Made by a program: the position numbers and the translations under genes. A model generated the notes under the pieces. The model had not been told where the DNA came from and did not search any database. It was given only the letters and a program-made list of their open reading frames with translations. Below, one piece after another: positions 6,201 to 25,338 of a DNA stretch of 64,000 nucleotides. Numbering within the stretch: position 1 is the stretch's first letter; every line of letters begins with the position of its first letter. The stretch is from Alphaproteobacteria bacterium (GTDB lineage Bacteria; Pseudomonadota; Alphaproteobacteria; Methylaequorales; Methylaequoraceae). Location: the NCBI GenBank assembly GCA_045563015.1, contig JBJKUQ010000014.1:11433-75432 (forward strand), given 5' to 3'.

Positions 6201-7469
6201 ATGTTTGTTCATAAAGACATAATTATCGTATTCATATTTATAATATTAGTATGCCTAATTTTTATCTTTCTTTTCTTAAAAGATCTTAGAAGTGTAATTA
6301 AAAATTTACAGAATTTTTCCGGTAAACCAATTAAAAGCTCTCGATTGTTTTTTTTTAAATTATACGAGCCCATAATTTTTAACTTAAATAGTATTTTAAA
6401 AAAATATCAGGACAACTATAGGATCGAACAATTAAGGGTTTTTTTCTTTAATTATTTTTTTCAAAATTTTCCCGATCCACTCTTAATTATAGATCAGCGT
6501 CTTTATGTTATAGAGTTTAATTCAGCAAGTGGACAACTTCTTGGAGAAAATATTAAAAACAAAAATATTTTTTCTGTTCTCAGAATACCTGAACTTAGTG
6601 ATCTTATTGATGAATCACAAAAAAAGAAAAAACCAATTGAAAAAGAAGTAGACTTGATTTATCCATCCGAAAGAATTTATAAAATTTGGATTTCTGGGAG
6701 CAGAGATGTTGGTAAAAATAAATTAAGTTTTATTAGACTCTTTGATACAACTGCAGAACATAATTTACAAAACTTGCAAAAAGATTTTATAGCTAACGCC
6801 AGTCATGAACTTAAAACTCCTATTTCAGTAATAATTGGTTATTGTGAAACACTTCTTAAAGAAAAAGATACTAAAAAAGATATAAAAGAAAGTTTTTTAA
6901 AAACCATGAGCAGCGAAGCTGAACGAATGTCAAAACTTGTGAGTGAATTACTATCTTTGTCGCGAATCGAGAGGACTGAATTTAGTCCTCCAGAAGAAAA
7001 AGTAAGCTTAAATAAAATAATAAATGGTGTAAAAACGATCTGTTTAGAAAGAAAATTATTTAAACGAATTGATTGTAAGTTTTTAATTCCAAAAAAAGAA
7101 ATTTTTATTACCGGCGATGAATCAGAGCTTAGTCAGGTTTTTTTTAATATTATTGAAAACGCCATTACACATAGTCAATCAAAGAAACCGATACAGGTAA
7201 GTATCAAGATTATTAAAGATGTTGTAAATCTAACCGTTGAGGACTTTGGCATTGGTGTTGCAACTCAAAATATTCCTCTTTTAACAAAAAGATTTTTTAG
7301 AGTCGATCCCTCTCGTTCAAGGAAATTAGGTAATACAGGTCTTGGATTATCAATAGTTAAGCATATTTTAAATCGTCATAATGCTAATTTTCACATTGAA
7401 TCAGAAATTGGAAAAGGAACTAAATTTTTAGTTACATTTAAAACTAATAACCCTAACTTGTTGCAATAA
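6201..7469 (+). CDS. phoR: Phosphate regulon sensor histidine kinase
   Basis: 422 aa. N-terminal TM segment, H-box FIANASHELKTPI, N/G boxes (NAITHS, GLGLSIVKH). Lies in the Pho island. Confidence 0.85.
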   Translation: MFVHKDIIIVFIFIILVCLIFIFLFLKDLRSVIKNLQNFSGKPIKSSRLFFFKLYEPIIFNLNSILKKYQDNYRIEQLRVFFFNYFFQNFPDPLLIIDQRLYVIEFNSASGQLLGENIKNKNIFSVLRIPELSDLIDESQKKKKPIEKEVDLIYPSERIYKIWISGSRDVGKNKLSFIRLFDTTAEHNLQNLQKDFIANASHELKTPISVIIGYCETLLKEKDTKKDIKESFLKTMSSEAERMSKLVSELLSLSRIERTEFSPPEEKVSLNKIINGVKTICLERKLFKRIDCKFLIPKKEIFITGDESELSQVFFNIIENAITHSQSKKPIQVSIKIIKDVVNLTVEDFGIGVATQNIPLLTKRFFRVDPSRSRKLGNTGLGLSIVKHILNRHNANFHIESEIGKGTKFLVTFKTNNPNLLQ

Positions 7470-7524: not shown

Positions 7525-7580
7525 ATAAAGATTTTATGTTTCTTACTTAATATTATTAATCTTATTAAATGAGGAAAGAA

Positions 7581-9038
7581 ATGAATAAATATTATGCTGG
7601 ATTAGCCGTAATGGCTACGGGAGCTTTCATTGGTACAGCAAGTGCTCAAGACTACGGTGCACAGATCGATGCTTTGCAAAATGAAGTTCTTAAAATGAAA
7701 CAAAAAATGTCTAAAGGTGATGGTAAGGGCAAAGCCTACTTTGAAAAAGGTAAGGGTTTGCGTGTCAAAAGTATCGACGGAAAATATAAGTTTCAAATAA
7801 AAGGCAGAATTATGTATGATGTTGGTGGTATTCTTGACTATGATGGAACTCTCGCTGATGGATCAACCGGAACAATTACTGAAGCTGGTCTAGGTTCAGA
7901 ATTTAGAAGACTTAGATTCACATTAAAAGGTGATATTGGAAATGGATGGGGTTTTGCTTTCCAACCTGATTTTGCAGATGGAGGTGATGACTCCGCAGAT
8001 AGAACTGTTATATTCAAAGATGCTCTTATCTACAAAGGCATTAAAGGATTTGGTAAGCTTACATTTGGTAACCAAAAAGCAGCAGCAGGATTGTATGAAA
8101 ATACAAGTTCTAACAATTTGATATTCATGGAAAGACCAATGCATAATGAAACTATGAATTTTGGTCACAGAGCTGGTATTGGTTACGATACATCTGGAGC
8201 ATTTGGTAAAAGGTTTCACTTAAAGGCGACTCTTTTCCACGGTATGGAAAGCGCTATAGAGCAAAATATATCCGATGGTAGCGGGGGTCCAACAAATACT
8301 GAAAGGAACAACGAATCTTTTGGAGGTAGTGTTGCAACACAATATCAACTATTAAAAAGTAAAAATGAACATATATTTGGTAAAGGAACATCTCTTCTTA
8401 TAGGTGCTCATTTTGGTGCATTAGACCTTAGTAATACAGATACTGATACGGCTGGTGATCGTAATGGCTTTGGTCGTTATGACACAAATAGTGCTAGAGC
8501 AAACGGACTGCATACTTTAGTTGACAAACCAATAGATTTAGGTGATGAACTCAATCTTAAATATCATCACTTCTTTGGTCCACAATATAGTCTGATTATG
8601 GGACAACTATTTTCTCAGGCTGAATACCAAGTTGGTAAATATGAATATTCAGCACCAAATACAGTGAATGCTGTAGCTGAAGAAGATTTTGATTTTCATG
8701 GAGGTTCTATAAGTATAGCATATGCTTTCTCTGGAAATTTCAAGCACAGTGGTAAAAAAGGAGCACTGGGTGGGTTAAAATGCAAAAGACATTGCTTTAT
8801 GCCGAAATATCAATACGAATGGGTAGATCAAACAGATCATGACGGCAATGCAGCCGGAACTGGAGATAGAAACGGTGGTTCAGGTGAAGCTCATACATTC
8901 GGTTTCAATCACTATTTCAACTCTAATGTAAGATTAATGATGGAATATACCTATGGTGATTATGGTTCAGATAATTCAAATGGTATGAGATCATCTGAGA
9001 TGTCATCAATTCAAACTAGATTACATCTTAAATACTAG
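7581..9038 (+). CDS. Outer-membrane porin, phosphate-selective OprO/OprP-like family
   Basis: Signal peptide MNKYYAGLAVMATGAFIGTASA|QD, then an N-terminal coiled segment (QIDALQNEVLKMKQKM). Gly/aromatic-rich alternating beta-strand pattern with a C-terminal ...RLHLKY. Start moved to the ATG at 7581, which follows a GAGGAAAG SD (the track ORF starts at 7569). Confidence 0.7.
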   Translation: MNKYYAGLAVMATGAFIGTASAQDYGAQIDALQNEVLKMKQKMSKGDGKGKAYFEKGKGLRVKSIDGKYKFQIKGRIMYDVGGILDYDGTLADGSTGTITEAGLGSEFRRLRFTLKGDIGNGWGFAFQPDFADGGDDSADRTVIFKDALIYKGIKGFGKLTFGNQKAAAGLYENTSSNNLIFMERPMHNETMNFGHRAGIGYDTSGAFGKRFHLKATLFHGMESAIEQNISDGSGGPTNTERNNESFGGSVATQYQLLKSKNEHIFGKGTSLLIGAHFGALDLSNTDTDTAGDRNGFGRYDTNSARANGLHTLVDKPIDLGDELNLKYHHFFGPQYSLIMGQLFSQAEYQVGKYEYSAPNTVNAVAEEDFDFHGGSISIAYAFSGNFKHSGKKGALGGLKCKRHCFMPKYQYEWVDQTDHDGNAAGTGDRNGGSGEAHTFGFNHYFNSNVRLMMEYTYGDYGSDNSNGMRSSEMSSIQTRLHLKY

Positions 9039-9060: not shown

Positions 9061-9087
9061 AAAAGGCCCTTCGGGGCCTTTTTTTTT
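9061..9087 (+). terminator. Rho-independent terminator after the porin gene
   Basis: aaaaGGCCCttcgGGGCC followed by a T9 run. It is the clearest GC hairpin plus U-tract I found in the window. Confidence 0.85.
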
Positions 9088-9090: not shown

Positions 9091-9127
9091 TGTAATAGTT
9101 TGTAATAATTTTGACACAAAATGTTGT
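9091..9127 (+). promoter_or_regulatory. Pho-box-like repeat cluster upstream of plcP
   Basis: TGTAATagttTGTAATaatttTGACACaaaaTGTTGT: four TGTnAn-type hexamers at 10-11 bp phasing, ending 13 bp before the plcP ATG. Confidence 0.5.
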
Positions 9128-9139
9128 TATTTTTAAAAT

Positions 9140-9943
9140 ATGGATGGGCAATCCTACAAAAGATTAAAAGGATACCGGACTGTTTGGATTTCCGACCTTC
9201 ACCTTGGAACTTCTGGTTGCAAAGCAGAGCTGTTATTAGAATTTCTTAAACAAGTTAAAACTGACACCATCTATTTGGTCGGTGACATCGTTGATGGTTG
9301 GAGATTAAAAAAAAAATGGTATTGGCCACAATCACACAACGACGTTGTTCAAAAACTTCTTAGAAAAGCTAGAAAAGGTGTCAAAGTTATTTTTATACCT
9401 GGAAATCATGATGAGGCTGCCCGCAAATATATTGGTGTAAACTTTGGTGACATAAAAATCATGAAATACGCTATTCATAAAACAATTAAAGGAAAAAATC
9501 TTTGGATTATTCATGGTGATCAATTTGATGGCATAATAAAGCATGCCAAATGGCTTGCTTATTTAGGTGATAAGGGTTATGTAACCTTAATAAAAATTAA
9601 TACACTATTTAACAAGTTCAGAAGATTCTTTAATTTACCCTATTGGTCCCTATCCCAATTTTTAAAACATAAAGTAAAAAAAGCTGTATCATTTGTTACA
9701 GCTTACGAGCATATTATGGCTAAAGAGGCAAAAAGAAGAGGCTTTGATGGGGTTGTATGTGGTCATATACACAAAGCAGAGTTAAAAATAATTGATGGTA
9801 TAATCTATGCTAATGATGGTGATTGGGTTGAATCCCTTACTGCTTTGGTTGAGAATTATGATGGAACACTCGAGATAATTGATTGGTCTGAGAAAGTTAA
9901 GCAACAACACAATAAATTAATTTTAACACACTCGAAAATTTAA
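9140..9943 (+). CDS. plcP: Metallophosphoesterase of the LpxH-like/PlcP type (phospholipase C used in P-sparing lipid remodelling)
   Basis: 267 aa. Calcineurin-like motifs DLHLG, GDIVDGW, GNHDE, HGDQFD, GHIHK. Immediately followed by a glycolipid glycosyltransferase and preceded by Pho boxes. Confidence 0.8.
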   Translation: MDGQSYKRLKGYRTVWISDLHLGTSGCKAELLLEFLKQVKTDTIYLVGDIVDGWRLKKKWYWPQSHNDVVQKLLRKARKGVKVIFIPGNHDEAARKYIGVNFGDIKIMKYAIHKTIKGKNLWIIHGDQFDGIIKHAKWLAYLGDKGYVTLIKINTLFNKFRRFFNLPYWSLSQFLKHKVKKAVSFVTAYEHIMAKEAKRRGFDGVVCGHIHKAELKIIDGIIYANDGDWVESLTALVENYDGTLEIIDWSEKVKQQHNKLILTHSKI

Positions 9944-9950
9944 AAGATCA

Positions 9951-11348
9951 ATGAAAATATCCATAATTTCAGATGCCTGGATGCCCCAAGTCAACGGCGT
10001 TGTTCACACCTTAAGTCATACTAAAAGAATACTAGAAAAAAGAGGTCATCATGTTCAAATGATTACTCCAAACGTTTTCAATACTTTTCCCTGTCCTACT
10101 TATCCGGAGATTCGTCTTGCTTTATTTCCATACAATAAAGTAAAAAAAATGATCAATGACTTTTTACCGGATGCTATTCATATTGTAACTGAGGGTCCCC
10201 TTGGCCTTGCTGCTAGGAATTTTGTTGTAAAAAATGGTTTTACTTATACGACATCTTTTCATACACGATTTGCTGAATATATTTATGAAAGATCAAGGTT
10301 ACCACTTTCTTTGAGTTACAGCTACTTGAGATGGTTTCACAATAAAGCTTACAAAATCTTAACACCAACTAAATCTATTATGGAAGAATTAAGTTATTGG
10401 GGTATTAAAAACACAACTGAATGGCCTCGAGGAGTTGATACAAGTTTGTTTAAACCACCAAAAAAAAAAATTAAAAATCCCAAGCCTGTTTTAATAAATG
10501 TTGGACGCATTGCTGTTGAAAAAAATCTTGAAGAATTTCTTAGTCTCAATATCAATTGTGACAAATGGGTTGTTGGTGATGGTCCGGATAAACGCAAATT
10601 GGAAAAAAAATACCCTAATGTTAAGTTTTTTGGACATAAGTCGCCCAAAGAACTTCCTAATCTTTATGGAAAAGCCGACCTTTTTGTTTTTCCAAGTAAA
10701 ACTGACACCTTTGGCCTTGTTATTCTTGAAGCTATGGCATGTGGGCTTCCTGTAGCAGCCTTTCCCGTTTCAGGTCCTCTAAATGTAATTGGTAATAGTG
10801 GTGCTGGAGTTTTAGATAAAAATTTACAATACGCTTGCGAGAAGGCAATGCAAATTAAACCCTCCGTACCAATTAACCATGCAAAGAAATTTAAGTGGGA
10901 ACGAGTGGCTAGTATATTTGAATCAAATTTACAAATCGCAGCTAAAAGAAATCCGAAAACTTATATTTTAAATGATAACCCTCACAAAAAGAATACTGGA
11001 CTTAAAAGACTTTTTTTTGCATTAATAAATAGTCTTTCTGGTTTTAATTTTGCTTTTAAAGAGGAAAGTGCTTTCAGGCAAGAGCTCTTATTAAGTGTAC
11101 TTCTTTTTCCCTCCATTTTTTTTTTCCCTACATCTCCAGTTGAAAAAATATTAATGATTGGTAGCTTGTTAATTTTATTAATAGTTGAACTTCTTAACTC
11201 TAGTGTTGAAGCAGCTATTGACAGAATCTCTTTTTCTCAACATGATTTATCTAAGCGTGCCAAGGATCTTGGAAGTGCTGCGGTTTTTCTTTCTTTACTA
11301 TTGGTTTTAATAACCTTCACAGTCATAATCACAAAGCATATAATCTAA
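9951..11348 (+). CDS. GT4-type diacylglycerol glycosyltransferase (Agt-like) fused to a complete C-terminal diacylglycerol kinase (DgkA) domain
   Basis: 465 aa single ORF. The N-terminal ~340 aa has MKISIISDAWMPQVNGVVHT and a ...FPS..DTFGLVILEAMACGLPV GT-B signature. The C-terminal ~120 aa (nt ~10992-11348) matches E. coli DgkA motif for motif: ESAFRQE, IVELLNSSVEAAIDRIS, LSKRAKDLGSAAV. Confidence 0.8.
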   Translation: MKISIISDAWMPQVNGVVHTLSHTKRILEKRGHHVQMITPNVFNTFPCPTYPEIRLALFPYNKVKKMINDFLPDAIHIVTEGPLGLAARNFVVKNGFTYTTSFHTRFAEYIYERSRLPLSLSYSYLRWFHNKAYKILTPTKSIMEELSYWGIKNTTEWPRGVDTSLFKPPKKKIKNPKPVLINVGRIAVEKNLEEFLSLNINCDKWVVGDGPDKRKLEKKYPNVKFFGHKSPKELPNLYGKADLFVFPSKTDTFGLVILEAMACGLPVAAFPVSGPLNVIGNSGAGVLDKNLQYACEKAMQIKPSVPINHAKKFKWERVASIFESNLQIAAKRNPKTYILNDNPHKKNTGLKRLFFALINSLSGFNFAFKEESAFRQELLLSVLLFPSIFFFPTSPVEKILMIGSLLILLIVELLNSSVEAAIDRISFSQHDLSKRAKDLGSAAVFLSLLLVLITFTVIITKHII

Positions 11349-11463
11349 GTAAGTGCTTATACACTTATTTAAATCGCTACTAGTTATTATATAAAAAGAG
11401 AAAAATGTGCACATGCACTTAAATAATAATTTTTGTTTGCATATTATAAGTGCGTATACACTA

Positions 11464-13608: not shown

Positions 13609-14607
13609 ATGGTTACATACGGAATCAACGGAATTGGAAGGATTGGAAAGTTTGCACTTAAAGCACTTATTAAGAGAGAGGCTAAAGTTTCCTGGATAAA
13701 TGATTCTTCGGGAACTGTTGATTTACATCGTCATCTTCTTGAATATGACTCAGTTCATGGAAAATGGGATGCTGATTTTAGTAATGATGAAAAATCTATC
13801 ACTATAAATGATAAAAAAATAATCTTTCAAACAAACTCTACTATTGAAAATATTGAGTTGGGAGATGTTGATATTGTTATTGATTGTACTGGTTATTATA
13901 AATCAAGATCTAAACTTTTGAATTACTTTAACAAGGGAGTTAAAAAAGTTGTCGTATCTGCTCCCATTGAAGATGAAAATATAGTTAATATTGTCTACGG
14001 GGTTAATCAAGATATCTACGATTCCAAAAAATACGATATAGTTACTGCTGCAAGCTGTACTACTAACTGTCTTGCACCGATTGTTAAAGTGATTCATGAA
14101 AATATAGGCATAAAACACGGGTCAATTACAACAATTCACAACCCAACAAATACCCAAACAATAGTTGATAAGGCCAATAAAGAATTTCGAAGAGCAAGAT
14201 CTGCACTCAATTCTCTAATTCCAACAACCACAGGAAGCGCTAAAGCAATTACTCTAATTTATCCTGAATTACTAGGAAAATTAAATGGTCAAGCCGTACG
14301 AGTGCCTCTTTTAAATTCATCCTTGACTGATTGTGTATTTGAAGTTTCTCGGAAAACAAACAAGAAAGAAATAAATAATCTTCTTAAAAAAGCTTCTGAA
14401 CAAGAACTTAGAGGAATATTAGGTTATGAGGAAAAGCCACTCGTTTCTACTGATTACCTGAGTGATAAAAGGTCAGCAATAATTGATGCTGATTGTACAA
14501 TGGTTATTAACGAAACACAGGTAAAAATTTATGCGTGGTATGATAATGAAATTGGTTATGCTGAGCGACTAATAGATGTATCCCAGATGGTAGGGTCATT
14601 GTTGTGA
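13609..14607 (+). CDS. gap: Glyceraldehyde-3-phosphate dehydrogenase (ArsJ-partnered type)
   Basis: 332 aa. GINGIGRIG NAD-binding motif, catalytic SCTTNCLAP, WYDNE near the C-terminus. Its stop overlaps the arsJ start (GTGA at 14604-14607). Confidence 0.9.
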   Translation: MVTYGINGIGRIGKFALKALIKREAKVSWINDSSGTVDLHRHLLEYDSVHGKWDADFSNDEKSITINDKKIIFQTNSTIENIELGDVDIVIDCTGYYKSRSKLLNYFNKGVKKVVVSAPIEDENIVNIVYGVNQDIYDSKKYDIVTAASCTTNCLAPIVKVIHENIGIKHGSITTIHNPTNTQTIVDKANKEFRRARSALNSLIPTTTGSAKAITLIYPELLGKLNGQAVRVPLLNSSLTDCVFEVSRKTNKKEINNLLKKASEQELRGILGYEEKPLVSTDYLSDKRSAIIDADCTMVINETQVKIYAWYDNEIGYAERLIDVSQMVGSLL

Positions 14608-15863
14608 AAAATATTTATCAAAAACAGAAAACTTTCATTTTAATAACGCTTTCATATTGGTCTTTCATGCTCACCGATGGTGCTCTGAGAATGATAGTTT
14701 TATTACATTTTCACTCTATGGGGTTTACACCTATTGAACTAGCTTACCTATTTCTTGTTTATGAGTTAGCAGGAATTATTACGAATTACTTCGGAGGTTG
14801 GTTAGCTTCACGATTTGGTCTAAAGAGTACGTTGTTTTCCGGTTTGTCAATTCAAATAGTCTCTTTAACGCTACTTTTAATGCTTGATAAAAGTTGGGCT
14901 TTAGAGCTATCAATTATTTATGTTATGATCGTTCAGGGCTTTAGTGGAATTGCAAAAGATCTCACGAAAATGTCGTCAAAATCAGTTGTAAAGTTTATTG
15001 CATCAAATAAAAAGGGAAACTTATTTAAATTAGTTTCATTTCTTACTGGCTCAAAGAATGCCTTAAAGGGGTTAGGTTTTCTTGTTGGAGGCTTATTACT
15101 TTCAACTTTTGGTTTTGAATCTTCTTTAACTCTGATGATTCTTTTATTAGTTGGAATATTAATAATAGTTATGATTTCTATCTCCTCCGAACTACCATGC
15201 GGTAACAAAAAGGTAAGGCTTTCTGATATTAGATCAAAATCAAGAAATATAAATTATTTATCTTTGGCAAGAGTTTTCCTTTTTGGCTCTAGGGATGTTT
15301 GGTTTGTAGTTGGTGTTCCTGTTTATTTTTATAGTTTTTTTTCAGTTACTGAACAACAAACTAATTCAACACCATTTTTTATAGTTGGTGGCCTAATGGC
15401 TATTTGGGTTATCTTCTACGGTATTGTTCAAGCTATGGGACCATCAATAATAAATTTAAAAACAAAATCTGAACAATCATTAGTAAATGAATCAAAAAAA
15501 TGGTGTAAATTTTTATTTATAACATTGTTAATATTCACTTTTTTAATTTACTTAGTCAGCAAGTCTGAACAAATACAATTAATAATTACTATTATTCTAT
15601 TGATTACTTTTGGATTTATCTTTGCCGTAAATTCGTCTTTACATTCATATTTAATTTTAAAATTTACGAAAAAAGAAAGGGTTGCCCTAGATGTAGGTTT
15701 TTATTATATGGCAAACGCATTTGGAAGATTCTTTGGAACTCTATTTTCTGGAATTTCATATCAATTTGGAGGCATAATTTTTTGCTTAGCAACTTCGACA
15801 ATGATGATAATGATAAATGTCTTTTTTACAAATAAATTGAGTATTAACAAAGAGGCTTTTTAA
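14604..15863 (+). CDS. arsJ: MFS permease of the ArsJ family (1-arseno-3-phosphoglycerate efflux)
   Basis: 419 aa, about 12 TM segments. The N-terminus YWSFMLTDGALRMIVLLHFHSMGFTPIELAYLFLVYELAGIITN and ...QGFSGIAKDLTKMSSKS match the ArsJ signature as I recall it. Obligate gap-arsJ gene pairing. Confidence 0.75.
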   Translation: MKNIYQKQKTFILITLSYWSFMLTDGALRMIVLLHFHSMGFTPIELAYLFLVYELAGIITNYFGGWLASRFGLKSTLFSGLSIQIVSLTLLLMLDKSWALELSIIYVMIVQGFSGIAKDLTKMSSKSVVKFIASNKKGNLFKLVSFLTGSKNALKGLGFLVGGLLLSTFGFESSLTLMILLLVGILIIVMISISSELPCGNKKVRLSDIRSKSRNINYLSLARVFLFGSRDVWFVVGVPVYFYSFFSVTEQQTNSTPFFIVGGLMAIWVIFYGIVQAMGPSIINLKTKSEQSLVNESKKWCKFLFITLLIFTFLIYLVSKSEQIQLIITIILLITFGFIFAVNSSLHSYLILKFTKKERVALDVGFYYMANAFGRFFGTLFSGISYQFGGIIFCLATSTMMIMINVFFTNKLSINKEAF

Positions 15864-15866
15864 AGA

Positions 15867-17969
15867 ATGGTAAGAAAAAATAAAAATAATATTAAAAAAA
15901 GTCCCCAAAGATTTATTAACAGAGAATTATCCTGGTTGAGTTTTAATGAAAGAGTTCTACAAGAAGCCCAAAATAACAACAACCCTATTCTTGAGAGATT
16001 AAGATTTTTGTCCATTTCGGGAAATAATTTAGATGAGTTTCACATGGTAAGAGTTGCCGGTTTATTTAGGCAACTCAAAAAAAAAATTTTTATCCGAACC
16101 TCAGATGGACGGACTACTAGACAGCAATACCAAGATGTTGCTAAATCTATGAAAGTAATTCTAAAAAAACAACAATTAGTCTTATCTGATTTGAGGAAGA
16201 AGTTAGAGAAAGAAAAAATAAGAATCATTGATTCCCCAAAAAATATAAAAAAAAAACGTGATATAGTTAATAAAATCTTTGAGAAAAAAATCTTTTCAAC
16301 ACTAACACCTTTAGCAATTGATCCTGCACATCCTTTTCCGTTCTTACCAAATCTGAGTTTGAGTTTAGTTTGCTCATTAAAAAATAAAGCTGGGAAAACT
16401 ACTTATTCTTTGGTTATTTTACCTCCCAAGTTAAAAAGATTTTTTAAAATAAGTAAAAAAGAAGATAGTTTCGTAAGCTCTGAAAATATAATCAAACAAA
16501 ATTTAGAATCTATTTTTCCTGATTATGAACTAGCTCAATATACTTTTATCAGAATAATCAGAGATAGTGATATAGAATTCGAAGAGGAGGCTGAGGATCT
16601 TCTTCTATCATTCGAAACAGCATTAAAAAAAAGACGTCGTGGTGAGGTTGTTGGTTTATACGTTCAAGGAAGAGTAGAGAAGAAATTACTAAACTTTCTA
16701 AGAAAATCTTTAAAAGTTAAAGATGAAAGTATTTTTCGCTTAAAATCAATTTTAGATGTTAGTTCTCTTAATGAACTTATTGATGAAAAAAAATTATCCC
16801 TTTGCTTCAAACCTTTTAAATCAAGATACCCACAAAGAATATTAGATTTTAATGGAAAATGTTTTTCTGCCATTAAAAAAAAGGATATACTTATACATCA
16901 TCCATTTGAAAGTTTTGATGTTGTAGTAGACTTTTTACAACAGGCATCAAAAGATCCTAAGGTTATTTCAATAAAACAAACTCTTTACAGAACTAGTTCT
17001 GAATCACCAATTATCGAGGCATTAAAGACAGCATCAAATAATGGGAAGTCTGTAACAGCAGTAGTTGAATTAAAAGCAAGGTTTGATGAAGAAAAAAATC
17101 TAAAATGGGCGAAGGATCTTGAAAGATCAGGGGTAAGCATTGTTTATGGTTTTCTCAAATGGAAAACACATGCAAAAATTTCTTTGATTTCAAGACAAGA
17201 AGGTGATGATATAACCTCTTATGTTCATTTTGGAACTGGAAATTATCATCCGATTACAGCTAAAATTTATACAGACCTATCGTATTTTTCTTGTAACGAA
17301 GAGTTGGTGAATGATGCCTTAAAAATTTTTAATTTTATTACAGGTTATACAAAACCTCAAAAAATGCAGTTAATTTCATATTCGCCAACTTTACTTAGAA
17401 ACTTTATGATAGAGCTCATTGATAACGAAATAATTAACTCAAGGAAAAAATTGCCAGCAGAAATTTGGATTAAAGTTAATTCATTAATTGATGATGAAAT
17501 GATCGATAAACTTTATGAAGCCTCTCAAGCAGGAGTAAAAATTTTTCTTATAGTTAGAGGAATATGTGGTTTACGTCCTGGTGTTAAAAATTTATCTGAA
17601 AATATTTTTGTTAAAAGTTTGATAGGTAGATTTTTAGAACACAGTCGAATATATTGCTTTGCAAATGGGAAAAAAATGCCTGATAAACAAAATAAAATTT
17701 TCATCTCATCTGCTGATATGATGACAAGAAATCTCGATAGGCGAGTCGAAACCTTTATTCCAATTATCAATAATACTGTTCATAAGCAAGTTTTAGAGCA
17801 GATAATGACCAATTATTTAAAAGATAATGCAAACAGTTGGATTTTAGATCATAATGGAGTATATAAAAAAATAAAAAAAGGTAGTGTTTTTTCTACATAT
17901 AATTTTTTTATAAATAACCCGTCATTATCTGGTAGAGGTTCACACTTACAAACAAATGAAAAAAAATAA
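15867..17969 (+). CDS. ppk: Polyphosphate kinase 1
   Basis: 700 aa. FINRELSWLSFNERVLQEA N-terminus, two PLD-like HxK regions (..KTHAKISLI..). Confidence 0.95.
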   Translation: MVRKNKNNIKKSPQRFINRELSWLSFNERVLQEAQNNNNPILERLRFLSISGNNLDEFHMVRVAGLFRQLKKKIFIRTSDGRTTRQQYQDVAKSMKVILKKQQLVLSDLRKKLEKEKIRIIDSPKNIKKKRDIVNKIFEKKIFSTLTPLAIDPAHPFPFLPNLSLSLVCSLKNKAGKTTYSLVILPPKLKRFFKISKKEDSFVSSENIIKQNLESIFPDYELAQYTFIRIIRDSDIEFEEEAEDLLLSFETALKKRRRGEVVGLYVQGRVEKKLLNFLRKSLKVKDESIFRLKSILDVSSLNELIDEKKLSLCFKPFKSRYPQRILDFNGKCFSAIKKKDILIHHPFESFDVVVDFLQQASKDPKVISIKQTLYRTSSESPIIEALKTASNNGKSVTAVVELKARFDEEKNLKWAKDLERSGVSIVYGFLKWKTHAKISLISRQEGDDITSYVHFGTGNYHPITAKIYTDLSYFSCNEELVNDALKIFNFITGYTKPQKMQLISYSPTLLRNFMIELIDNEIINSRKKLPAEIWIKVNSLIDDEMIDKLYEASQAGVKIFLIVRGICGLRPGVKNLSENIFVKSLIGRFLEHSRIYCFANGKKMPDKQNKIFISSADMMTRNLDRRVETFIPIINNTVHKQVLEQIMTNYLKDNANSWILDHNGVYKKIKKGSVFSTYNFFINNPSLSGRGSHLQTNEKK

Positions 17970-19401
17970 ATCTCCTTTTGCTGTTATAGACATTGGCTCA
18001 TCTTCAGTTAGATTAGTTATCTTTGACTCAGTTAGTTATTCAGCAAATACAGTTTTCAACGAAAAGGTAATTATGAATTTAGGAAAAATTATATGTTCTA
18101 ATCGATCTTTTTCAAAAAAAATGATTGAGGAGTTAATTATTGTTTTAAAAAGATTTTTTGAGATTTCAAAAAACATAAAGAAAAAAAATATCATTGTTTT
18201 TGGATCTGCAGCTGTAAGAATAGCAAAAAATAAGCAAATATTGGTAAACTTAATTTTAAAAAAATTTGGAATTCGATTAAAAGTTTTAAGTGAAAAGGAA
18301 GAAGGCCTTCTCGCTGCAAAAGGATTATTTTTTTCAAGAAATATAGTTAATGGATTAGTTGGAGACTTTGGTGGAGGAAGCCTAGAATTAGTTAAAGTAA
18401 AAAAAAGAGACCAATCAGAATTTCTTGGGTCATCAAATTTAGGTCATGTAGTACTTCAAGGTTTAGGTCAGCCAGATGGAGTCGTTATTTCAAATTTTAT
18501 AGATAGAAATTTAAAAAAAATTGAATCTAAAAACTTTGAGAATTTCTATGCAATAGGTGGGTCCTTTAGGGCATTAGCAAAAATTCACATGCATATCGAA
18601 AATGATGATATTAAAATAATTCAAGACTACTCCGCTAATGCTGAAAATTTTATTCATTCAATCAGAAAAGTAATGTTCAAAGGGGGTACAATTAACGAAA
18701 ATTTCCTAAAAAAAATTTCCAAGTCTAGGTGTCAGATAATTCCTTACAGCTTTGTTATTTTAGAAAAAATTGTAAAAAAATTTAAAATTAAAAATATCTA
18801 TTTTACAAATACAGGAATAAGAGAAGGAATACTTTACGAAAACATAAGTGAAAAGGAAAGTGATCCCTTTTTTTTACAGGTTAAGAAAATTTCAAATTCA
18901 GCTAAGACTAAGAATGTAAAAAAAATTTTCGACTGGGTAAAATCATTTGATGGTAACATAAAATTATGCGACAGAATTGTCAAAGCAGCTTGTTGGTTGA
19001 TGAATATAGGATCCAACATTCATCCAGAGCATAGACGTGTTTTTGCATTAGAAGAGATTCTATATTATCCATTCAATCATTTAGAAAGAAAAGATAGGTA
19101 TCTTTTATCTTTAATTCTTTATTTCAGATATTCAAACTCTATTAAAGATAAATTTGTAACAACTTACACAAGCAAAGTTTCACCTCGTGAATTGGAAAGT
19201 TGTAAAGTTCTTGGGCAGTTGCTTAGAATAGTCCATCATTTGACTGGAAGACTAAACTACAAAGTTCTTAAGCTTTGTAAAATTAGTATGACAAAAAAAA
19301 ATAAAGTATCCTTGAAAATTAACAAAGATCCGCATTTAGTTTTCAGTCAATCTCTCAATAGGGGAATTGAAAATATATCTAATATATACAAAAATAATTA
19401 A
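17956..19401 (+). CDS. ppx: Exopolyphosphatase (Ppx/GppA family)
   Basis: 481 aa. ASKHA N-terminus AVIDIGSSSVRLVIF, GDFGGGSLEL, C-terminal HD-like region. Overlaps ppk by 14 nt. Confidence 0.85.
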   Translation: MKKNKSPFAVIDIGSSSVRLVIFDSVSYSANTVFNEKVIMNLGKIICSNRSFSKKMIEELIIVLKRFFEISKNIKKKNIIVFGSAAVRIAKNKQILVNLILKKFGIRLKVLSEKEEGLLAAKGLFFSRNIVNGLVGDFGGGSLELVKVKKRDQSEFLGSSNLGHVVLQGLGQPDGVVISNFIDRNLKKIESKNFENFYAIGGSFRALAKIHMHIENDDIKIIQDYSANAENFIHSIRKVMFKGGTINENFLKKISKSRCQIIPYSFVILEKIVKKFKIKNIYFTNTGIREGILYENISEKESDPFFLQVKKISNSAKTKNVKKIFDWVKSFDGNIKLCDRIVKAACWLMNIGSNIHPEHRRVFALEEILYYPFNHLERKDRYLLSLILYFRYSNSIKDKFVTTYTSKVSPRELESCKVLGQLLRIVHHLTGRLNYKVLKLCKISMTKKNKVSLKINKDPHLVFSQSLNRGIENISNIYKNN

Positions 19402-19412
19402 AAATAAAATTA

Positions 19413-19440
19413 TGTCATAAAACTGTAACAATTCTGTAAT
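19413..19440 (+). promoter_or_regulatory. Pho box (three phased direct repeats) upstream of pstS
   Basis: TGTCATaaaacTGTAACaattcTGTAAT: hexamer starts at 19413, 19424 and 19435, exactly 11 bp apart, about 60 bp upstream of pstS. Confidence 0.75.
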
Positions 19441-19501
19441 ATTTATTTCCTTATTATCTCTTATCTTTATATCTTAACTTTTCAACAAAGAGAGGAAAAT
19501 A

Positions 19502-20554
19502 ATGAAAAAAACTATGTTAGTCGCAGCTGCTCTGACTATTGGTTTATCTAGCCAGGTCAGTTCACGTGATCAAATTAAAATCGTTGGGTCTTCAACGGTA
19601 TATCCTTTTGCAACAGTTGTTGCTGAAAGATTTGGAAAAACAAGTGGTTTTAAAACGCCAGTAATTGAGTCAACTGGCTCAGGGGGCGGATTAAAGCTTT
19701 TTTGTGCTGGATTAGGTACTGAACATCCAGATATAACTAATGCTTCTAGAAGAATAAAAATGAAAGAAGTAAAGAAATGTACTGAAAATGGTGTTACCGA
19801 CATTACTGAAATTAAAGTTGGTTTTGATGGTATTGCAATGGCAAATGCCAAATCTGCACCAATGTTAGAGCTAACTTTAAAAGATGTTTACTTAGCTTTA
19901 GCAAAGGATGTTCCAGCTGACCCTGAAGGAAACACAGTTAAACCTAACCCATACAAAATGTGGAATGAAGTTAACCCAGCTCTTCCTGCCAAGCCTATTG
20001 TAGTTATTGGACCGCCTCCAACTTCTGGAACGCGAGATGCTTTTAACGAGCTTGCTATCGAAAGAGGCTGTAAAAAGTTTCCTGGAAGAAAAGCTTTAAA
20101 AAAAACTAACAAAAAACTTTATAAACAGCAGTGTAGAAGCGTTAGGGAAGATGGTCCATTCGTTGAGGCTGGTGAAAATGATAATTTAATCATTGAAAAA
20201 TTAGTTGCTGACCCAAACGCATTAGGAGTTTTTGGTTATTCTTTTTTAGATCAAAATAGAGATAAAGTGAAAGCCGCCAAGGTTGATGGCGTTTTTCCTG
20301 AATTTGAAGCAATCTCCTCTGGAAAGTATCCTGTTTCGAGATCTTTATTCTTTTATGTAAAAAATGCTCATGCATCTGTTATTCCAGGTGTTAAAGAATA
20401 TGTAAGAGAATTTACTGCAAGCAAGACAATAGGAAACGACGGTTATTTAGTCCCCAAAGGTCTAATACCACTCCCAGAAGGTGAAAGAGCAAAATTTGAA
20501 CAAGATGGTAAATCTTTGGCAAAATTTGACGCTAAAGCTCTTCAGAAGAAGTAA
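19502..20554 (+). CDS. pstS: Phosphate ABC transporter substrate-binding protein
   Basis: 350 aa. Signal peptide, IKIVGSSTVYPF, ESTGSGGG, TSGTRD motifs. Strong SD AGAGAGGAAA. Confidence 0.9.
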   Translation: MKKTMLVAAALTIGLSSQVSSRDQIKIVGSSTVYPFATVVAERFGKTSGFKTPVIESTGSGGGLKLFCAGLGTEHPDITNASRRIKMKEVKKCTENGVTDITEIKVGFDGIAMANAKSAPMLELTLKDVYLALAKDVPADPEGNTVKPNPYKMWNEVNPALPAKPIVVIGPPPTSGTRDAFNELAIERGCKKFPGRKALKKTNKKLYKQQCRSVREDGPFVEAGENDNLIIEKLVADPNALGVFGYSFLDQNRDKVKAAKVDGVFPEFEAISSGKYPVSRSLFFYVKNAHASVIPGVKEYVREFTASKTIGNDGYLVPKGLIPLPEGERAKFEQDGKSLAKFDAKALQKK

Positions 20555-20563
20555 GCTTTAAAT

Positions 20564-21949
20564 ATGGGGTTTTGGTCCTTTTTAATCATCTTTTGTTTTC
20601 TTAGCTTTTACATCCATTGGTATGGAACTACAAAAGCTCTTAAAATTAACGAAGAGATTACAAAAGGATCAAAACTACCTTCCCTCCCTTCTTATTATGG
20701 AACATATTCATTTTTGTGGTTGTTGTTACCCAGTTTAATAATACTTATTTGTTGGTTTTTTTTTAAACCTTACATAATTGACATCTTCCTTAAAGAATTT
20801 ATTCCACTAAGCCTTGTTGATAACTTCCAAGGCAACCCATCGATGCTTATCGATACAATCAAAGCTACAAACCCAGAAAAAGTTTTTCCAGGAACTAACC
20901 CTTTAATTATTGATTCCGCAGTTTATTATCAGACATTAAAAACTAGTTCTGATTCATATGTTTTTCTTTTAGTACTCGTTATAGGTTTAATTTCAAGTTT
21001 GGTTTCACTAAGAAAAGTCTCTACTTTTTTCAGGGCACGTCAAGCAGTTGAAAAAACAAATATAAACCTTTTAATTTTTTGTTCAGTAATTGCAATTATT
21101 ACAACTGTAGGAATTATTTTTTCATTAATTTTTGAGGCCATTAGATTTTTTGAAAGAGTCCCTTTTTTTGATTTTTTATTTGGTTTAAGCTGGAGCCCTC
21201 AAACTGCTATTAGAGAAGATCAGATAGCAAGCCAGGGTTCATTCGGAGCTGTACCAATTTTCACAGGAACACTTTTAATTACCTTAGTTGCAATGGCTGT
21301 TGCTATCCCTGTTGGTCTTCTATCAGCAATTTATCTGGCAGAATACGCCAGACCAACTGTAAGAAAAACCTTCAAGCCAATTCTTGAAATATTAGCTGGA
21401 GTTCCAACAGTCGTTTACGGTTTTTTTGCTGCAATAACGGTTGGTCCATTTTTGAAGGATTTTGTTTCATCTTTAGGGTTATCGATGGCTTCAGAAAGTG
21501 CATTGGCAGCAGGAGGAGTTATGGGAATAATGATTATCCCGTTTATTTCTTCATTATCAGACGATGTAATAACATCTGTTCCGATGTCACTTAGAGACGG
21601 GTCATATGCTATGGGTGCTACTAAATCAGAAACTATTAAAAAAGTTATTTTACCTGCTGCACTCCCAGGAATAGTAGGAGCAATTTTATTAGCAATTTCA
21701 CGTGCAATTGGCGAAACAATGATTGTTGTTATGGCTGCAGGAATTGCAGCAAATCTTACTGCAAACCCTTTAGAGGCAGTAACCACTGTAACTGTACAAA
21801 TTGTAACGCTATTAGTAGGCGACCAAGAATTTGATAGTGCAAAAACCCTCGCTGCATTTGCTCTCGGAATAACTTTATTTTTTGTAACTCTGTTATTGAA
21901 TTTATATGCACTAAAAATTGTCCAGAAATACAGAGAAAGATATGAGTAA
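20564..21949 (+). CDS. pstC: Phosphate ABC transporter permease PstC (long form)
   Basis: 461 aa, polytopic. ABC permease loop ..SRAIGETMIV... Confidence 0.9.
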   Translation: MGFWSFLIIFCFLSFYIHWYGTTKALKINEEITKGSKLPSLPSYYGTYSFLWLLLPSLIILICWFFFKPYIIDIFLKEFIPLSLVDNFQGNPSMLIDTIKATNPEKVFPGTNPLIIDSAVYYQTLKTSSDSYVFLLVLVIGLISSLVSLRKVSTFFRARQAVEKTNINLLIFCSVIAIITTVGIIFSLIFEAIRFFERVPFFDFLFGLSWSPQTAIREDQIASQGSFGAVPIFTGTLLITLVAMAVAIPVGLLSAIYLAEYARPTVRKTFKPILEILAGVPTVVYGFFAAITVGPFLKDFVSSLGLSMASESALAAGGVMGIMIIPFISSLSDDVITSVPMSLRDGSYAMGATKSETIKKVILPAALPGIVGAILLAISRAIGETMIVVMAAGIAANLTANPLEAVTTVTVQIVTLLVGDQEFDSAKTLAAFALGITLFFVTLLLNLYALKIVQKYRERYE

Positions 21950-23219
21950 AAACACTGAATTAATAAGTAAATCGCTTGAAAAAAGGCATAGAAAAGAAAA
22001 AAGATTTAGATTTTTTGGAATTCTAGGAATTGGTACTGCTGTTATATTTTTAGTAACGATTCTGTCTTCAATTTTCATAGAAGGAAAAAGTGCATTCAAA
22101 AGTACTTTTATACAATTAGAGATTAATTTTGACCAAGAAATCATTGATCCCAACAAAACCAATAACCCCGAAGAATTTAAGTTTGCGAATTATAAATTAT
22201 TAATAAATGATGGTTTAAAAAACTATTTTCCCGAAGTAAAAGATAGAAAAACTTTCAGGGATCTTTCTGTTTTTATTTCATCAGCAGCAGAGCAAAATCT
22301 TATGAAGCTTGCTATGGAAAATATTGAAATTATTGGAGAATCAAAAAAAATTTGGTTATTAGCATCATCTACAATTGATGTTATCCATAAAAACCCTCAG
22401 ATGGAAAATTTTTTAGAAGAAGATAGATTGATAAATAACATTCAAATGAGCTGGTTTAATGCCTTGAAGAAAAATGGAGATATAAAATTTGGGTTAAATA
22501 CGAATTTCTTGTCAAATGCAGACTCAACAGAACCTGAGCAAGCAGGTATTCTAGGGTCAATGTTAGGTTCTTTTTTTACATTACTTGTTACATTATTATT
22601 ATGTTTTCCTGTTGCTGTCGCCTCGGGTGTGTTCTTAGAAGAACTAGCTCCCAAAAATAAATTTACAGACTTTATTGAAATTAATATCAATAATCTTGCG
22701 GCAGTTCCTTCAATAATTTTTGGGCTTTTGGGCTTAGCTATTTTTTTAAACGTAATGCATTTACCAAGATCAGCTCCAATTGTAGGAGGGATGGTTCTGG
22801 CTCTCATGACCTTACCAACAATTATTATTTCTACAAGAGCATCACTAAAAGCTGTTCCCCCTTCAATCAGAGAAGCGGCTATTGGACTAGGTGCAACAAA
22901 ATTCCAAGCAGTAATTCATCACGTTTTACCACAATCTATGCCTGGAATACTTACAGGAACCATTATTGGTATGTCACAAGCCTTAGGGGAGTCAGCTCCT
23001 CTTTTAATGATAGGTATGGTTGCCTTTATTGTAGATATTCCAGGATCTTTTACTGATTCAGCTACAGTTCTACCAGTTCAAATTTACTTATGGAAAAGTA
23101 CTGCAGCTAGAGGTTTTGTGGAACTAACAGCAGCTGGAATAATGGTTCTTTTGACATTTTTAATAATTATGAATAGTGTAGCAGTTTTTGTTAGACAAAA
23201 GTTTGAAAAGAAATGGTAG
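21942..23219 (+). CDS. pstA: Phosphate ABC transporter permease PstA (long form)
   Basis: Track ORF starts at a TTG at 21918. The ATG at 21942 (MSKNTELI...), overlapping pstC by 8 nt, is more likely. Permease loop ..[14 protein letters not shown]... Confidence 0.9.
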
Positions 23220-23991
23220 TAACATCGTGAAAGAAACTGTCAAAATTAAGAGCAAAAAACTTAATGTTTTTTATGGAGAAAATAAAGCTCTTTCTAACAT
23301 AAACTTGGAAATTCCTGAAAGAAAAGTAACATCTCTTATCGGTCCTAGTGGATGCGGTAAGTCCACTTTTCTTCGTTGTCTTAATAGAATGAATGATAGC
23401 ATTGAAATATGTAAGATAGAGGGTCAAATCTTTGTAGACGAACAAAATATATATGAAAAAAACCTTGATCCAGTTTTACTGAGAGCAAGAATTGGTATGG
23501 TTTTTCAGAAACCCAACCCTTTCCCGAAATCAATTTTTGAAAATGTAGCCTACGGGCCAAAAATACATGGGTTAACAAACAGTGGGGATGAACTTAGTAA
23601 ATTAGTCGAAGTAAGCTTAAAGAAAGCAGGTCTTTATGATGAGGTAAAAGATAGAATAGATGAACCTGGAACATCTTTGTCCGGTGGACAACAGCAACGA
23701 TTATGCATTGCAAGAGCTATTGCTGTTAGCCCTGAGGTAATCCTCATGGATGAACCTTGCTCTGCTCTTGATCCGATAGCAACAGCTAAAATCGAAGAGC
23801 TAATTGACGAATTATCAAAAAATTATACAATTGTAATAGTGACTCACTCAATGCAACAAGCAGCAAGAGTGTCCAACCAAACTGCTTTTTTTCACATGGG
23901 TAGTCTTATAGAAGTTGGAAAAACCGATGAGGTTTTCTCAATGCCTAAGGAAAAAAAGACCCAGGACTACATAACAGGAAAGATAGGTTAA
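23188..23991 (+). CDS. pstB: Phosphate ABC transporter ATP-binding protein
   Basis: Walker [10 protein letters not shown], signature LSGGQQQRL, Walker B ILMDEP. The track start is a TTG at 23188. The GTG at 23227, 8 nt after the pstA stop, is an equally plausible start. Confidence 0.95.
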
Positions 23992-23992
23992 A

Positions 23993-24652
23993 ATGAAAGA
24001 ACACATTGTTTCAACTTATGACGAAGATCTAAGTTTACTCAAATCAAACTTGATTGAAATGGGTTTGAATTGTGAAAAACAGTTATTCAATGCAATAAAT
24101 ATCACTAGAATAATTAGTATAGAAAAAGCCAATGAAATCATTAAGAATGATCATGAGATTGATATTCAAGAAAGAAAAATAAGAGAGCTTGCAACAACAA
24201 CCCTTAGTAAAAGGCAGCCTCTTGCAGACGATCTTAGAAGAATAATAATTGCACTTAAAATCTCTAGTATTTTAGAAAGAATAGGAGATCATGCCTCAAA
24301 TATTGCAGGTAGGATTCTTCATGTAAAAAAAGCTCCTGAAAGCTATTTAACAGATTCAATATTTCAATTGGGTAAATTGGTTATAAAAAATTTTTCAAAC
24401 GCCTTAAGTTCATACGATCAAGAGTCACAAAAAATTGCTCAGATTGTCCCCACAGAAGATATTACAATTAATTCTGTCTATGAAACTTGTTTTAGAGAAC
24501 ATTTGCACTTAATGATGGAAGAGCCAAAGATTATAGGTTTTTGTACCCAAATGTTATTTATTGCCAAAGAGCTAGAGAGAATTGGAGACTTATCAAAAGT
24601 TATTTCGAAAGAAGTAATTTACAACTTAAAGGGTAAGTTAGTAAAAAGATGA
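23993..24652 (+). CDS. phoU: Phosphate signalling accessory protein PhoU
   Basis: 219 aa. Two PhoU repeats (..ERIGDHASNIA.., ..ERIGDLSKVI..). Confidence 0.9.
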   Translation: MKEHIVSTYDEDLSLLKSNLIEMGLNCEKQLFNAINITRIISIEKANEIIKNDHEIDIQERKIRELATTTLSKRQPLADDLRRIIIALKISSILERIGDHASNIAGRILHVKKAPESYLTDSIFQLGKLVIKNFSNALSSYDQESQKIAQIVPTEDITINSVYETCFREHLHLMMEEPKIIGFCTQMLFIAKELERIGDLSKVISKEVIYNLKGKLVKR

Positions 24653-25338
24653 GTGAGAAAAAAAGAATTTTAGTAGTTGAAGATGACACAGCTTTACTTC
24701 CTATGATTTCTTATAATCTTCAAAAAAACGGGTTTTCAGTTAAAGAAGCAACTAATGGCGAAGAAGCCTTGTTACTTGTAAAAGAAGAAATACCATCATT
24801 AGCTATAATTGATTGGATGATTCCTGCTCCTTCAGGGTTAGAAGTTTGCAGAATATTGAGAAGAAAAAAAGAAACTTCATCTATTCCAATTATTATTCTT
24901 TCGGCAAAAGGTGAAGAAGAAGATAAGATACGTGGCCTGGATACGGGAGCTGACGATTACATAACAAAGCCATTTAGCCCAGCTGAATTAGTTGCAAGAA
25001 TTAACTCTCTATTAAGAAGATCATCTTCCAATTCAACTGAAATAATTGAGTTTCAAGACATATCAATAAATCTTAACGAACATAAAGTTTACAGAGGTGA
25101 AAAAAAGATTCACCTAGGCCCAACAGAATATAAACTTTTAAAACATTTAATGGAAAATCCAGGAAGAGTATATTCACGAGAACAACTTTTGGATTCTGTC
25201 TGGGGTCATGGTATTTATGTTGAATCGAGAACAGTTGATACTCACATAAGACGACTTAGAAAAGCCATTAATACAAAAGGTACAAAAAACTTTATACGTA
25301 CAGTTCGCGCAGCAGGATACTCCATAGACTACGAATAA
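24649..25338 (+). CDS. phoB: Phosphate regulon response regulator PhoB (OmpR family)
   Basis: 229 aa. Receiver ILVVEDD...IIDWMIP...LSAKG...KPF, winged helix ..RTVDTHIRRLRKAI.. ATGA overlap with phoU. Confidence 0.9.
   Translation: MSEKKRILVVEDDTALLPMISYNLQKNGFSVKEATNGEEALLLVKEEIPSLAIIDWMIPAPSGLEVCRILRRKKETSSIPIIILSAKGEEEDKIRGLDTGADDYITKPFSPAELVARINSLLRRSSSNSTEIIEFQDISINLNEHKVYRGEKKIHLGPTEYKLLKHLMENPGRVYSREQLLDSVWGHGIYVESRTVDTHIRRLRKAINTKGTKNFIRTVRAAGYSIDYE

Follow-up and report, generated by a model that had tools for sequence, protein, structure and literature searches.

An in-frame fusion of a GT4 glycosyltransferase and a DgkA diacylglycerol kinase adjoining plcP in the phosphate island of an alphaproteobacterium

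The 64,000-nucleotide stretch of DNA analysed here (the window; contig JBJKUQ010000014.1 of assembly GCA_045563015.1, from an alphaproteobacterium placed in the Methylaequoraceae) contains a phosphate island spanning about 19 kb. Within it, plcP, which encodes an LpxH-like metallophosphoesterase, is followed after a gap of 7 nt, and likewise on the + strand, by a gene for a protein of 465 residues. This protein is composed of a GT4-family glycosyltransferase (GT; residues 1–330) and a complete DgkA diacylglycerol kinase (residues 351–465), which are joined in one reading frame. The original prediction for this locus, made from the sequence alone, had named the same three components: a PlcP-type metallophosphoesterase, an Agt/GTcp-type GT and a full DgkA in frame with it. 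It had called the combination paradoxical, as a kinase that returns diacylglycerol (DAG) to phosphatidic acid (PA) is fused to the enzyme that commits DAG to phosphorus-free lipid. The three identifications stand, and the evidence for each is given below; the coordinates of all features are collected in Table 1.

The PlcP product matches the Pfam family Metallophos over residues 13–212 (E 8e-15), and its translation shows the metal-binding motifs D-x-H, GD-x-x-D, GNH(D/E), H and GH-x-H. Scored with LpxH equivalog models it reaches 41 bits (cut-off 134) and 34 bits (cut-off 190), and by sequence it is distinct from true LpxH. Automated pipelines label it UDP-2,3-diacylglucosamine diphosphatase, despite these scores far under the LpxH cut-offs. 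It is 60–66% identical to the products of plcP genes located immediately 5' of agt in Burkholderia, Cupriavidus and SAR116 loci. Particularly, the identity is 61–62% to the PlcP of the B. latens, B. dolosa and Burkholderia sp. loci, which themselves share more than 84% identity with the studied PlcP of B. cenocepacia (bioRxiv 10.1101/2023.05.30.542800). The window protein may be orthologous to this studied PlcP, and probably acts as an intracellular phospholipase C giving DAG.

The GT half contains the two Pfam domains Glyco_transf_4 (residues 14–165) and Glycos_transf_1 (residues 169–288). The AlphaFold 2 (AF2) model shows a confident GT-B fold, with a predicted local distance difference test score (pLDDT) mostly above 85 across residues 1–330. 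When the whole model was used for a Foldseek search, the best folds were MshA, PimA and BshA (E 1e-15 to 1e-17); this search gave GT4 enzymes only and no DgkA match, the DgkA half being identified by sequence. Enzymes of the Agt/GTcp group transfer Glc, GlcA or Gal from a UDP-sugar to DAG; against the NCBIfam lipid-GT equivalogs, the GT half scores far under the cut-offs. A mutational study of GTcp from strain HTCC7211 defined a His104–Asp256 dyad, the motifs GRVAxEKN and FPSxTDTFG, and the residues needed for activity (PMC8231724). We aligned the GT halves of 20 fused proteins with one unfused relative and compared GTcp through the residues given in that study. The counterparts of GTcp G16, L56, G82, G85, H104, R163, R190 and K195, as well as those of D256, T257, F258, G259, E264 and W320, are invariant in the 21 sequences. 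In window numbering, the invariant positions include G16, G82, G85, H104, R186, K191, D252, T253, F254, G255, E260 and W316. The motifs GRxAxEKN and FPSxTDTFG are invariant in the same alignment. The counterpart of GTcp T162 is not securely mapped, while its neighbour R163 corresponds to the invariant window residue R160. With all mappable essential GTcp residues invariant, the GT half looks catalytically competent.

The C-terminal half matches the Pfam family DAGK_prokar (PF01219) over residues 360–459 (E 3.8e-28; 97.8 bits, cut-off 22.3), covering profile positions 2–101 of 102. It aligns with E. coli DgkA over 115 residues without a gap (BLASTP, 37% identity, E 3e-26), and the three DgkA motifs quoted in the original prediction are found at residues 372–378, 411–427 and 433–445. 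A phmmer search of the PDB with the kinase half returned E. coli DgkA entries only (3ZE3 and others, E 4e-22); the NCBIfam library is without a DgkA model, and its sole match to this half was noise. In the AF2 model, a surface helix (residues 351–371) is followed by three transmembrane helices (375–391, 396–425 and 432–464), in line with the hydropathy segments at 379–397, 394–424 and 437–465.

The active site of E. coli DgkA is located at the interface between membrane and cytosol, and 18 of its residues affect catalysis (Li et al. 2015, PMC4703834). Sixteen of these 18 residues are identical in the window protein and invariant in 20 fused homologs: R9, S17, G20, E28, A30, E34, E69, N72, S73, E76, D80, S90, K94, D95, G97 and A100 (E. 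coli numbering). The conserved set includes the catalytic base E69, the metal ligands E28/E76, N72, the D80–K94 pair and D95. DgkA T8 is variable across the family. G83 is replaced by Ser in the fusion, and Ser is also the majority state among DgkA representatives (93 of 149). K12 and W112 of E. coli DgkA are replaced by F356 and F456. From these residues, the kinase half looks catalytically competent. The N-terminus of DgkA is cytoplasmic. This places the GT half in the cytoplasm as well, tethered by a low-confidence linker of about 17 residues.

An assembly artefact can be dismissed as the origin of the fusion. NCBI has the identical protein as MFL2679379.1, under the title 'MAG: diacylglycerol kinase [Alphaproteobacteria bacterium]', and its 90%-identity cluster holds 93 full-length members on dozens of independent contigs from five sources (NCBI, JGI, Logan, ENA and Tara). 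Among the best 120 clusters at 90% identity (54–97% identical to the window protein), 119 are fused, with lengths of 461–484 aa and both the GT4 and the DAGK_prokar domains. These records independently support the continuity of the reading frame. A copy from a BATS metagenome (contig L085), which is 97% identical, shows the same synteny. Compared with this relative, the window has a ratio of non-synonymous to synonymous substitution rates (dN/dS) of 0.09 in the GT half and 0.135 in the DgkA half; both halves are under purifying selection. On the BATS contig, plcP and the porin gene look split; the break in plcP is a run of N, which marks a scaffold gap and not a pseudogene.

The homopolymer of 11 A that the original prediction had pointed out lies inside the GT half, and both the reading frame and the homology run on through it. 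A slip of +1 or −1 at this position leads to a stop at residue 175–181; since such a slip truncates the protein, the run cannot have produced the fusion. Homopolymers of 10 bases are found at 9307–9316 (A10) and 11116–11125 (T10), and the window is AT-rich (G+C about 23–35%). The junction contains no homopolymer of at least 9 bases. Residues 333–349 of the junction form the linker of about 17 residues, which has a pLDDT below 50. Its NP(H/Y)K motif also opens the free-standing DgkAs of loci L013, L014 and L081. As these free-standing proteins begin with the NP(H/Y)K-x-N-x-G of the linker, the junction corresponds to two native termini joined to each other.

The distribution of the fusion was examined in a genome survey that covered the best 80 of at least 595 GT relatives, taken as species-representative loci and subjected to our own frame and open-reading-frame (ORF) analysis. 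Truly fused genes occur at three of these 80 loci, two of them in single-cell genomes of SAR116 and the third in an uncultured marine alphaproteobacterium. At 17 of the 80, a separate dgkA in another frame directly follows agt. Sixteen of the 17 belong to named Betaproteobacteria or Burkholderiales-type genera, including Cupriavidus, Burkholderia, Paraburkholderia, Pandoraea, Trinickia, Dechloromonas and Alcaligenaceae, and one is an unclassified proteobacterium. Full-length betaproteobacterial tblastn matches had been candidates for further fusions and were resolved into separate genes by the ORF and frame analysis. plcP is found at 65 of the 80, in most cases with under 150 nt between it and the GT gene downstream. 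It abuts the fusion gene in every fused lineage examined: the window, L001–L003, isolate LSUCC0684 (L082), L083/L084 and L085. This adjacency, together with the position of dgkA after agt elsewhere, indicates a functional linkage and not an accident of gene order. In a search of representatives with the kinase half, the fused family falls essentially into one 50% cluster (P0005), which shows, at the level of sequence, that the fusion occupies a narrow space.

Among the best 80 GT relatives in the IMG/VR viral collection (L086–L165), neither the fusion nor a DgkA was found. plcP accompanies 72 of these 80 and lies immediately upstream in 52; some of the contigs are 480–500 kb long. In several Paraburkholderia loci (L044, 6014–6352; L059, L069, L076, L017), the DgkA homology begins 375–477 nt past the end of agt, and the open frame ahead of it encodes a His/Glu-rich repeat (EHVAEHVAEHV). 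This stretch could be either a low-complexity N-terminal extension of DgkA or an untranslated spacer.

The free-standing, operon-linked DgkAs are 49–60% identical to the kinase half of the window protein, compared with 37% for E. coli DgkA, and those encoded after agt share the NP(H/Y)K...EESAFRQE signature with it. In a neighbour-joining tree of the GT domain (no bootstrap), the fused proteins form one clade, which nests in a betaproteobacterial group where dgkA often adjoins agt. The closest GT-only relative, cluster P0104 (237 members, 71% identical), is nested within the fused clade. On a P0104 contig (L081, 1672–1705), the ATG of dgkA is located right after a run of eight A, and dgkA shares 26 nt with the 3' end of agt; removal of one A from this run gives an in-frame agt–dgkA fusion. 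Transcriptional slippage on the A8 run could therefore yield some fused protein in the P0104 lineage, and fused and split states would easily interconvert. The simplest history consistent with these sequences would be an ancestral agt–dgkA pair, one fusion that spread in marine Alphaproteobacteria, and at least one secondary split.

The plcP–fusion unit is bordered upstream by an intrinsic-terminator-like hairpin, which sits 3' of the phosphate porin gene; an equivalent hairpin is found 5' of plcP in L001, a locus of 75% identity. Between the hairpin and plcP lie Pho-box-like direct repeats, whose element TTGTAATAATTTTGACAC is also kept 5' of plcP in L001. As a Pho box, these repeats are suggestive only. 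They are overlapped by a sigma-70-like promoter match (11 of 12 consensus positions) that runs up to the annotated ATG, which makes the plcP start site or start codon uncertain. The strict pattern TGTxAy-N4-5-TGTxAy occurs at 7 sites only on both strands of the whole window, and 4 of the 7 precede the porin gene, plcP or pstS, the last of these with two sites. Classical Pho-box repeats (TGTCAT-N5-TGTAAC) are located 5' of the porin gene, pstS and the GAPDH gene. Taken as sequence patterns, these elements make Pho control of the plcP–fusion unit likely.

Table 1 Features of the plcP–fusion locus and the surrounding phosphate island (window coordinates)
Feature	Coordinates	Strand	Details
Fusion gene	9951..11348	+	465 aa; NCBI MFL2679379.1 identical
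GT4 (GT-B fold) half, Agt/GTcp type	9951..10940	+	residues 1–330; Pfam, AF2, Foldseek
A11 homopolymer	10460..10470	+	inside GT half, encodes PPKKKIK
Junction	10941..11000	+	residues 331–350: GT C-terminal tail and native DgkA-subfamily N-terminal tail (Y-x4-NP(H/Y)K-x-N-x-G)
DgkA half and stop codon	11001..11348	+	residues 351–465; surface helix and three transmembrane helices
plcP	9140..9943	+	267 aa LpxH-like metallophosphoesterase, PlcP type; NCBI MFL2679378.1
Intrinsic-terminator-like hairpin	9061..9082	+	9-bp stem, 5 GC pairs, T9 tail
Pho-box-like direct repeats	9091..9127	+	TGTAAT-N4-TGTAAT-N5-TGACAC-N4-TGTTGT
Sigma-70-like promoter match	9111..9139	+	TTGACA-17-TAAAAT, 11/12 consensus, overlaps Pho-box-like repeats
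PhoR-like histidine kinase	6201..7469	+	Pfam
Phosphate-selective porin O/P	7569..9038	+	Pfam; Pho box at 7508–7524
GAPDH, MFS, ppk, ppx, pstS, pstC, pstA, pstB, phoU, phoB	13609..25338	+	remainder of island

The island starts with the PhoR-like kinase and the phosphate porin, followed by plcP, the fusion gene, fae with a small helix-turn-helix (HTH) gene on the minus strand, a lysine-rich ORF, the GAPDH and MFS genes, ppk, ppx, pstSCAB, phoU and phoB. The Fae protein (formaldehyde-activating enzyme, E 7e-60) and the small HTH regulator are encoded at 11464–12228, in the middle of the Pho island, and L085, the BATS relative, carries this insertion as well. A GTGC-(N)-TATACACT / GTGCACATGCACT-like motif occurs three times between the fusion gene and fae (11349–11463), and could serve the adjacent HTH protein as an operator. 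The ORF at 12822–13478 encodes 218 aa with lysine-rich tandem repeats (KLKKPKKTISKLKN, three copies) and has no Pfam match; L085 keeps this gene at the same length. The GAPDH gene overlaps the MFS transporter gene (13609–15863) and lies behind a Pho-box-like repeat. In isolate LSUCC0684 (L082, 3753–5989), the GAPDH and MFS pair is divergent and adjoins plcP and the fusion gene. We take this pair to resemble the GAPDH–ArsJ pair of arsenate detoxification, a function that would presumably fit arsenate entry via Pst under phosphate stress. Directly 3' of phoB, at the island edge, a 622-aa two-domain protein is encoded that combines GT2 and GT9 (heptosyltransferase-like) domains (25389–27257). The sole Rfam match in the window is a tRNA gene at 62831–62902 on the − strand.

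The pairing of plcP, agt and a DAG kinase is not new, and the window represents the fused form of a known three-gene module. In B. cenocepacia K56-2, plcP (BCAL2364), agt and dagK (BCAL2366) form an operon that is conserved across pathogenic Burkholderia; all three proteins rise on depletion of inorganic phosphate, and the role of dagK is not discussed (bioRxiv 10.1101/2023.05.30.542800). The window module has the same three functions in the same order, with a PlcP that is about 61% identical. At the Burkholderia, Paraburkholderia and Cupriavidus loci, agt is followed by a gene for a PF01219-type DgkA, 54–60% identical to the window kinase half and sharing its NP(H/Y)K motif. Unlike these B. 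cenocepacia-type loci, where the genes are separate and in separate frames, sometimes with a long spacer or an N-terminal extension of DgkA, the window has agt and dgkA in one polypeptide. A Pseudomonas 'DagK' (Lidbury 2016) was set aside as a precedent: KEGG splits the soluble dagK (K07029) from the membrane dgkA (K00901), and it may be either of the two.

The order of plcP followed by a GT4 gene in a marine setting of phosphorus stress also resembles the PlcP–GTcp pair of 'Candidatus Pelagibacter sp.' HTCC7211 (Carini 2015; Sebastian 2016, PMC4796936; Wei 2021, PMC8231724). All GTcp residues for catalysis, UDP-sugar binding and DAG contact that could be mapped are kept in the window GT half, whereas GTcp itself is a soluble dimer of 334-aa chains without a kinase domain. 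A paper on the HIMB59 phosphate island lists a glycosyltransferase, a DAG kinase and LpxH as not directly related to phosphorus (PMC10734472). Full-text searches turned up no paper on an in-frame GT–DgkA fusion; JGI and NCBI records already annotate both domains of it.

With E. coli DgkA (3ZE3, 3ZE4, 4UXX; PMC4703834), the kinase half shares the arrangement of a surface helix and three transmembrane helices, as well as the 16 catalytic residues described above. The E. coli protein is a free-standing housekeeping enzyme of 121 residues that recycles DAG from envelope biosynthesis. Unlike it, the window kinase has a 38-kDa glycosyltransferase at its N-terminus and a Pho-island setting, and T8 and K12 are not conserved. 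In Gram-positive bacteria, the DAG pool is also used by the glycolipid synthase UgtP/YpfP. The Gram-positive lipoteichoic-acid cycle is a functional analogue of the window module: DAG is freed by a headgroup-removing enzyme, and a kinase returns it to PA. This kinase recycling of DAG is reported to be essential, and the recruitment of DgkB to the membrane by GdpS matters (PMC11962490). The cycle differs in its unrelated families (DgkB is soluble), in the envelope, in having no link to phosphate starvation, and in its non-covalent recruitment.

These observations lead to the reading that we consider the most probable, if only somewhat better than even: the fusion would be a membrane-embedded, two-headed consumer of DAG in a Pho-regulated plcP–agt–dgkA module for lipid renovation, in which the kinase handles surplus DAG. 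Under phosphate stress, PlcP would cut phospholipids on the cytoplasmic side of the inner membrane, releasing DAG. The three transmembrane helices of the DgkA half would anchor the 465-aa protein, which is presumably trimeric by analogy with E. coli DgkA, a homotrimer with shared active sites. Dimerisation of the GT half, where L56 is invariant, might clash with such a trimer. The GT half would use a UDP-sugar to turn DAG into phosphorus-free glycolipid. Whatever DAG it leaves, for example when UDP-sugar is limiting, would be phosphorylated to PA by the kinase half. This action would keep free DAG, a non-bilayer lipid, at a low level and salvage its acyl chains. In addition, the fusion would set a 1:1 ratio of the two activities and keep an otherwise soluble GT where DAG arises. 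The overflow and tether roles, the trimer, and Pho control in the source organism are all inferred.

On this overflow reading, the paradox raised by the original prediction stands in part. ATP would be spent, but no phosphorus would be lost, as the gamma-phosphate of ATP moves into recoverable PA. The paradox would therefore be one of energy cost and not of phosphorus cost, with phosphate re-sequestered temporarily in a lipid that PlcP can reach.

Several points weigh against the overflow reading. No dgkA adjoins agt at 60 of the 80 best plcP–agt-type loci; together with the soluble GTcp, which works alone, this means that the kinase is dispensable for remodelling as such. The AF2 monomer has no confident geometry between the halves (predicted template modelling score 0.67, linker pLDDT below 50), and substrate sharing is thus without structural support. 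The Pho-box-like repeat 5' of plcP is spaced at 10, where the canonical spacing is 11. Conversion of DAG into a phospholipid precursor under phosphorus stress would cost ATP and CTP, and would re-sequester phosphate temporarily. In every organism, moreover, the role of a plcP-linked DgkA is a matter of deduction.

The closest competitor, which we regard as clearly less probable than the overflow reading but still a serious candidate, is an ATP-gated branch point. Here the two heads would compete for DAG, and the levels of ATP and UDP-sugar would set the split, forming a built-in governor of phosphorus status. The 1:1 stoichiometry, the two intact sites and their common position at the cytoplasmic leaflet agree with it. 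The sequence evidence does not distinguish it from the overflow reading; on the other hand, the separate-gene versions function without a fixed stoichiometry. Of the explanations offered in the original prediction, a controller balancing recycling against replacement is the one favoured, in the general sense of a branch-point or overflow role; its ATP-gated form is kept as a rival.

It is improbable that the DgkA half no longer works as a kinase in the cell and is just a trimeric transmembrane anchor for the GT, in the manner of the first explanation in the original prediction. In favour of it, the soluble GTcp of HTCC7211 must reach a substrate embedded in the membrane, and the fusion places the GT at the cytoplasmic face. 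This explanation is disfavoured by the 16 of 18 catalysis-relevant residues that are invariant among proteins only 54–71% identical overall, as well as by the dN/dS of 0.135 for the DgkA half. Furthermore, the same subfamily is encoded free-standing after agt in Betaproteobacteria and L081, so no covalent anchoring takes place there.

A substrate of the kinase half other than PlcP-derived DAG (undecaprenol, monoacylglycerol or ceramide, for instance), along the lines of the third explanation in the original prediction, is about as improbable, or slightly more so. Gram-positive members of the DgkA family phosphorylate undecaprenol, and several lipid alcohols are substrates of the E. coli enzyme. 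This breadth, as well as the replacement of K12 and W112 by F356 and F456, could be cited for a changed specificity. However, S17, E69, N72 and S98, which contact the lipid headgroup in the ternary complex of E. coli DgkA, have invariant counterparts, the solved relatives are E. coli DgkA only, and in all lineages examined the gene comes immediately 3' of a DAG producer and is joined to a DAG consumer.

Reverse operation of the kinase would be the most far-reaching alternative. The reaction PA + ADP → DAG + ATP would run at or near equilibrium, pulled by the fused GT, to which DAG is handed over directly. If true, de novo PA would be turned into glycolipid membrane with the lipid phosphate recovered as ATP, a phosphorus-sparing bypass of phospholipid synthesis and of PlcP. 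It would dissolve the apparent paradox and explain selection for physical coupling. We nevertheless regard it as very unlikely: the reaction is uphill by about 17–22 kJ/mol (estimated from standard energies of phosphoester and ATP hydrolysis) and needs an extremely low local level of DAG, the AF2 model shows no channel, and the free-standing betaproteobacterial versions lack covalent coupling. A sequencing or assembly frameshift that merged two genes, for which the AT-rich, homopolymer-containing region and the single A separating L081 from a fusion might be cited, has a negligible chance against the identical protein on many independent contigs from five sources, the 119 fused clusters among 120, a junction free of long homopolymers and the truncation caused by A11 slips.

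The replacement of phospholipids by glycolipids is a major route by which ocean bacteria lower their phosphorus demand, and its accepted scheme has two enzymes, PlcP and Agt. The fusion is common in abundant marine Alphaproteobacteria, and both of its domains are textbook enzymes. Its public names mislead: NCBI uses 'diacylglycerol kinase' only, and JGI a 'cell wall' glycosyltransferase/kinase. The view of the GT, DAG kinase and LpxH genes in the HIMB59 island paper is a consequence of such naming. Surveys of lipid remodelling that seek an Agt of about 335 aa, or that trust these names, may therefore overlook the fusion or label it wrongly. As a natural 'Rosetta stone', the fusion places a DAG kinase physically in the remodelling machinery of Pelagibacter-like, SAR116 and LSUCC0684-like marine Alphaproteobacteria, and the kinase association has an operon-level counterpart in Burkholderia and its relatives. 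The fusion makes directly testable the question of how these bacteria control DAG and divide it between phosphorus-free lipid and return to the phospholipid pool.

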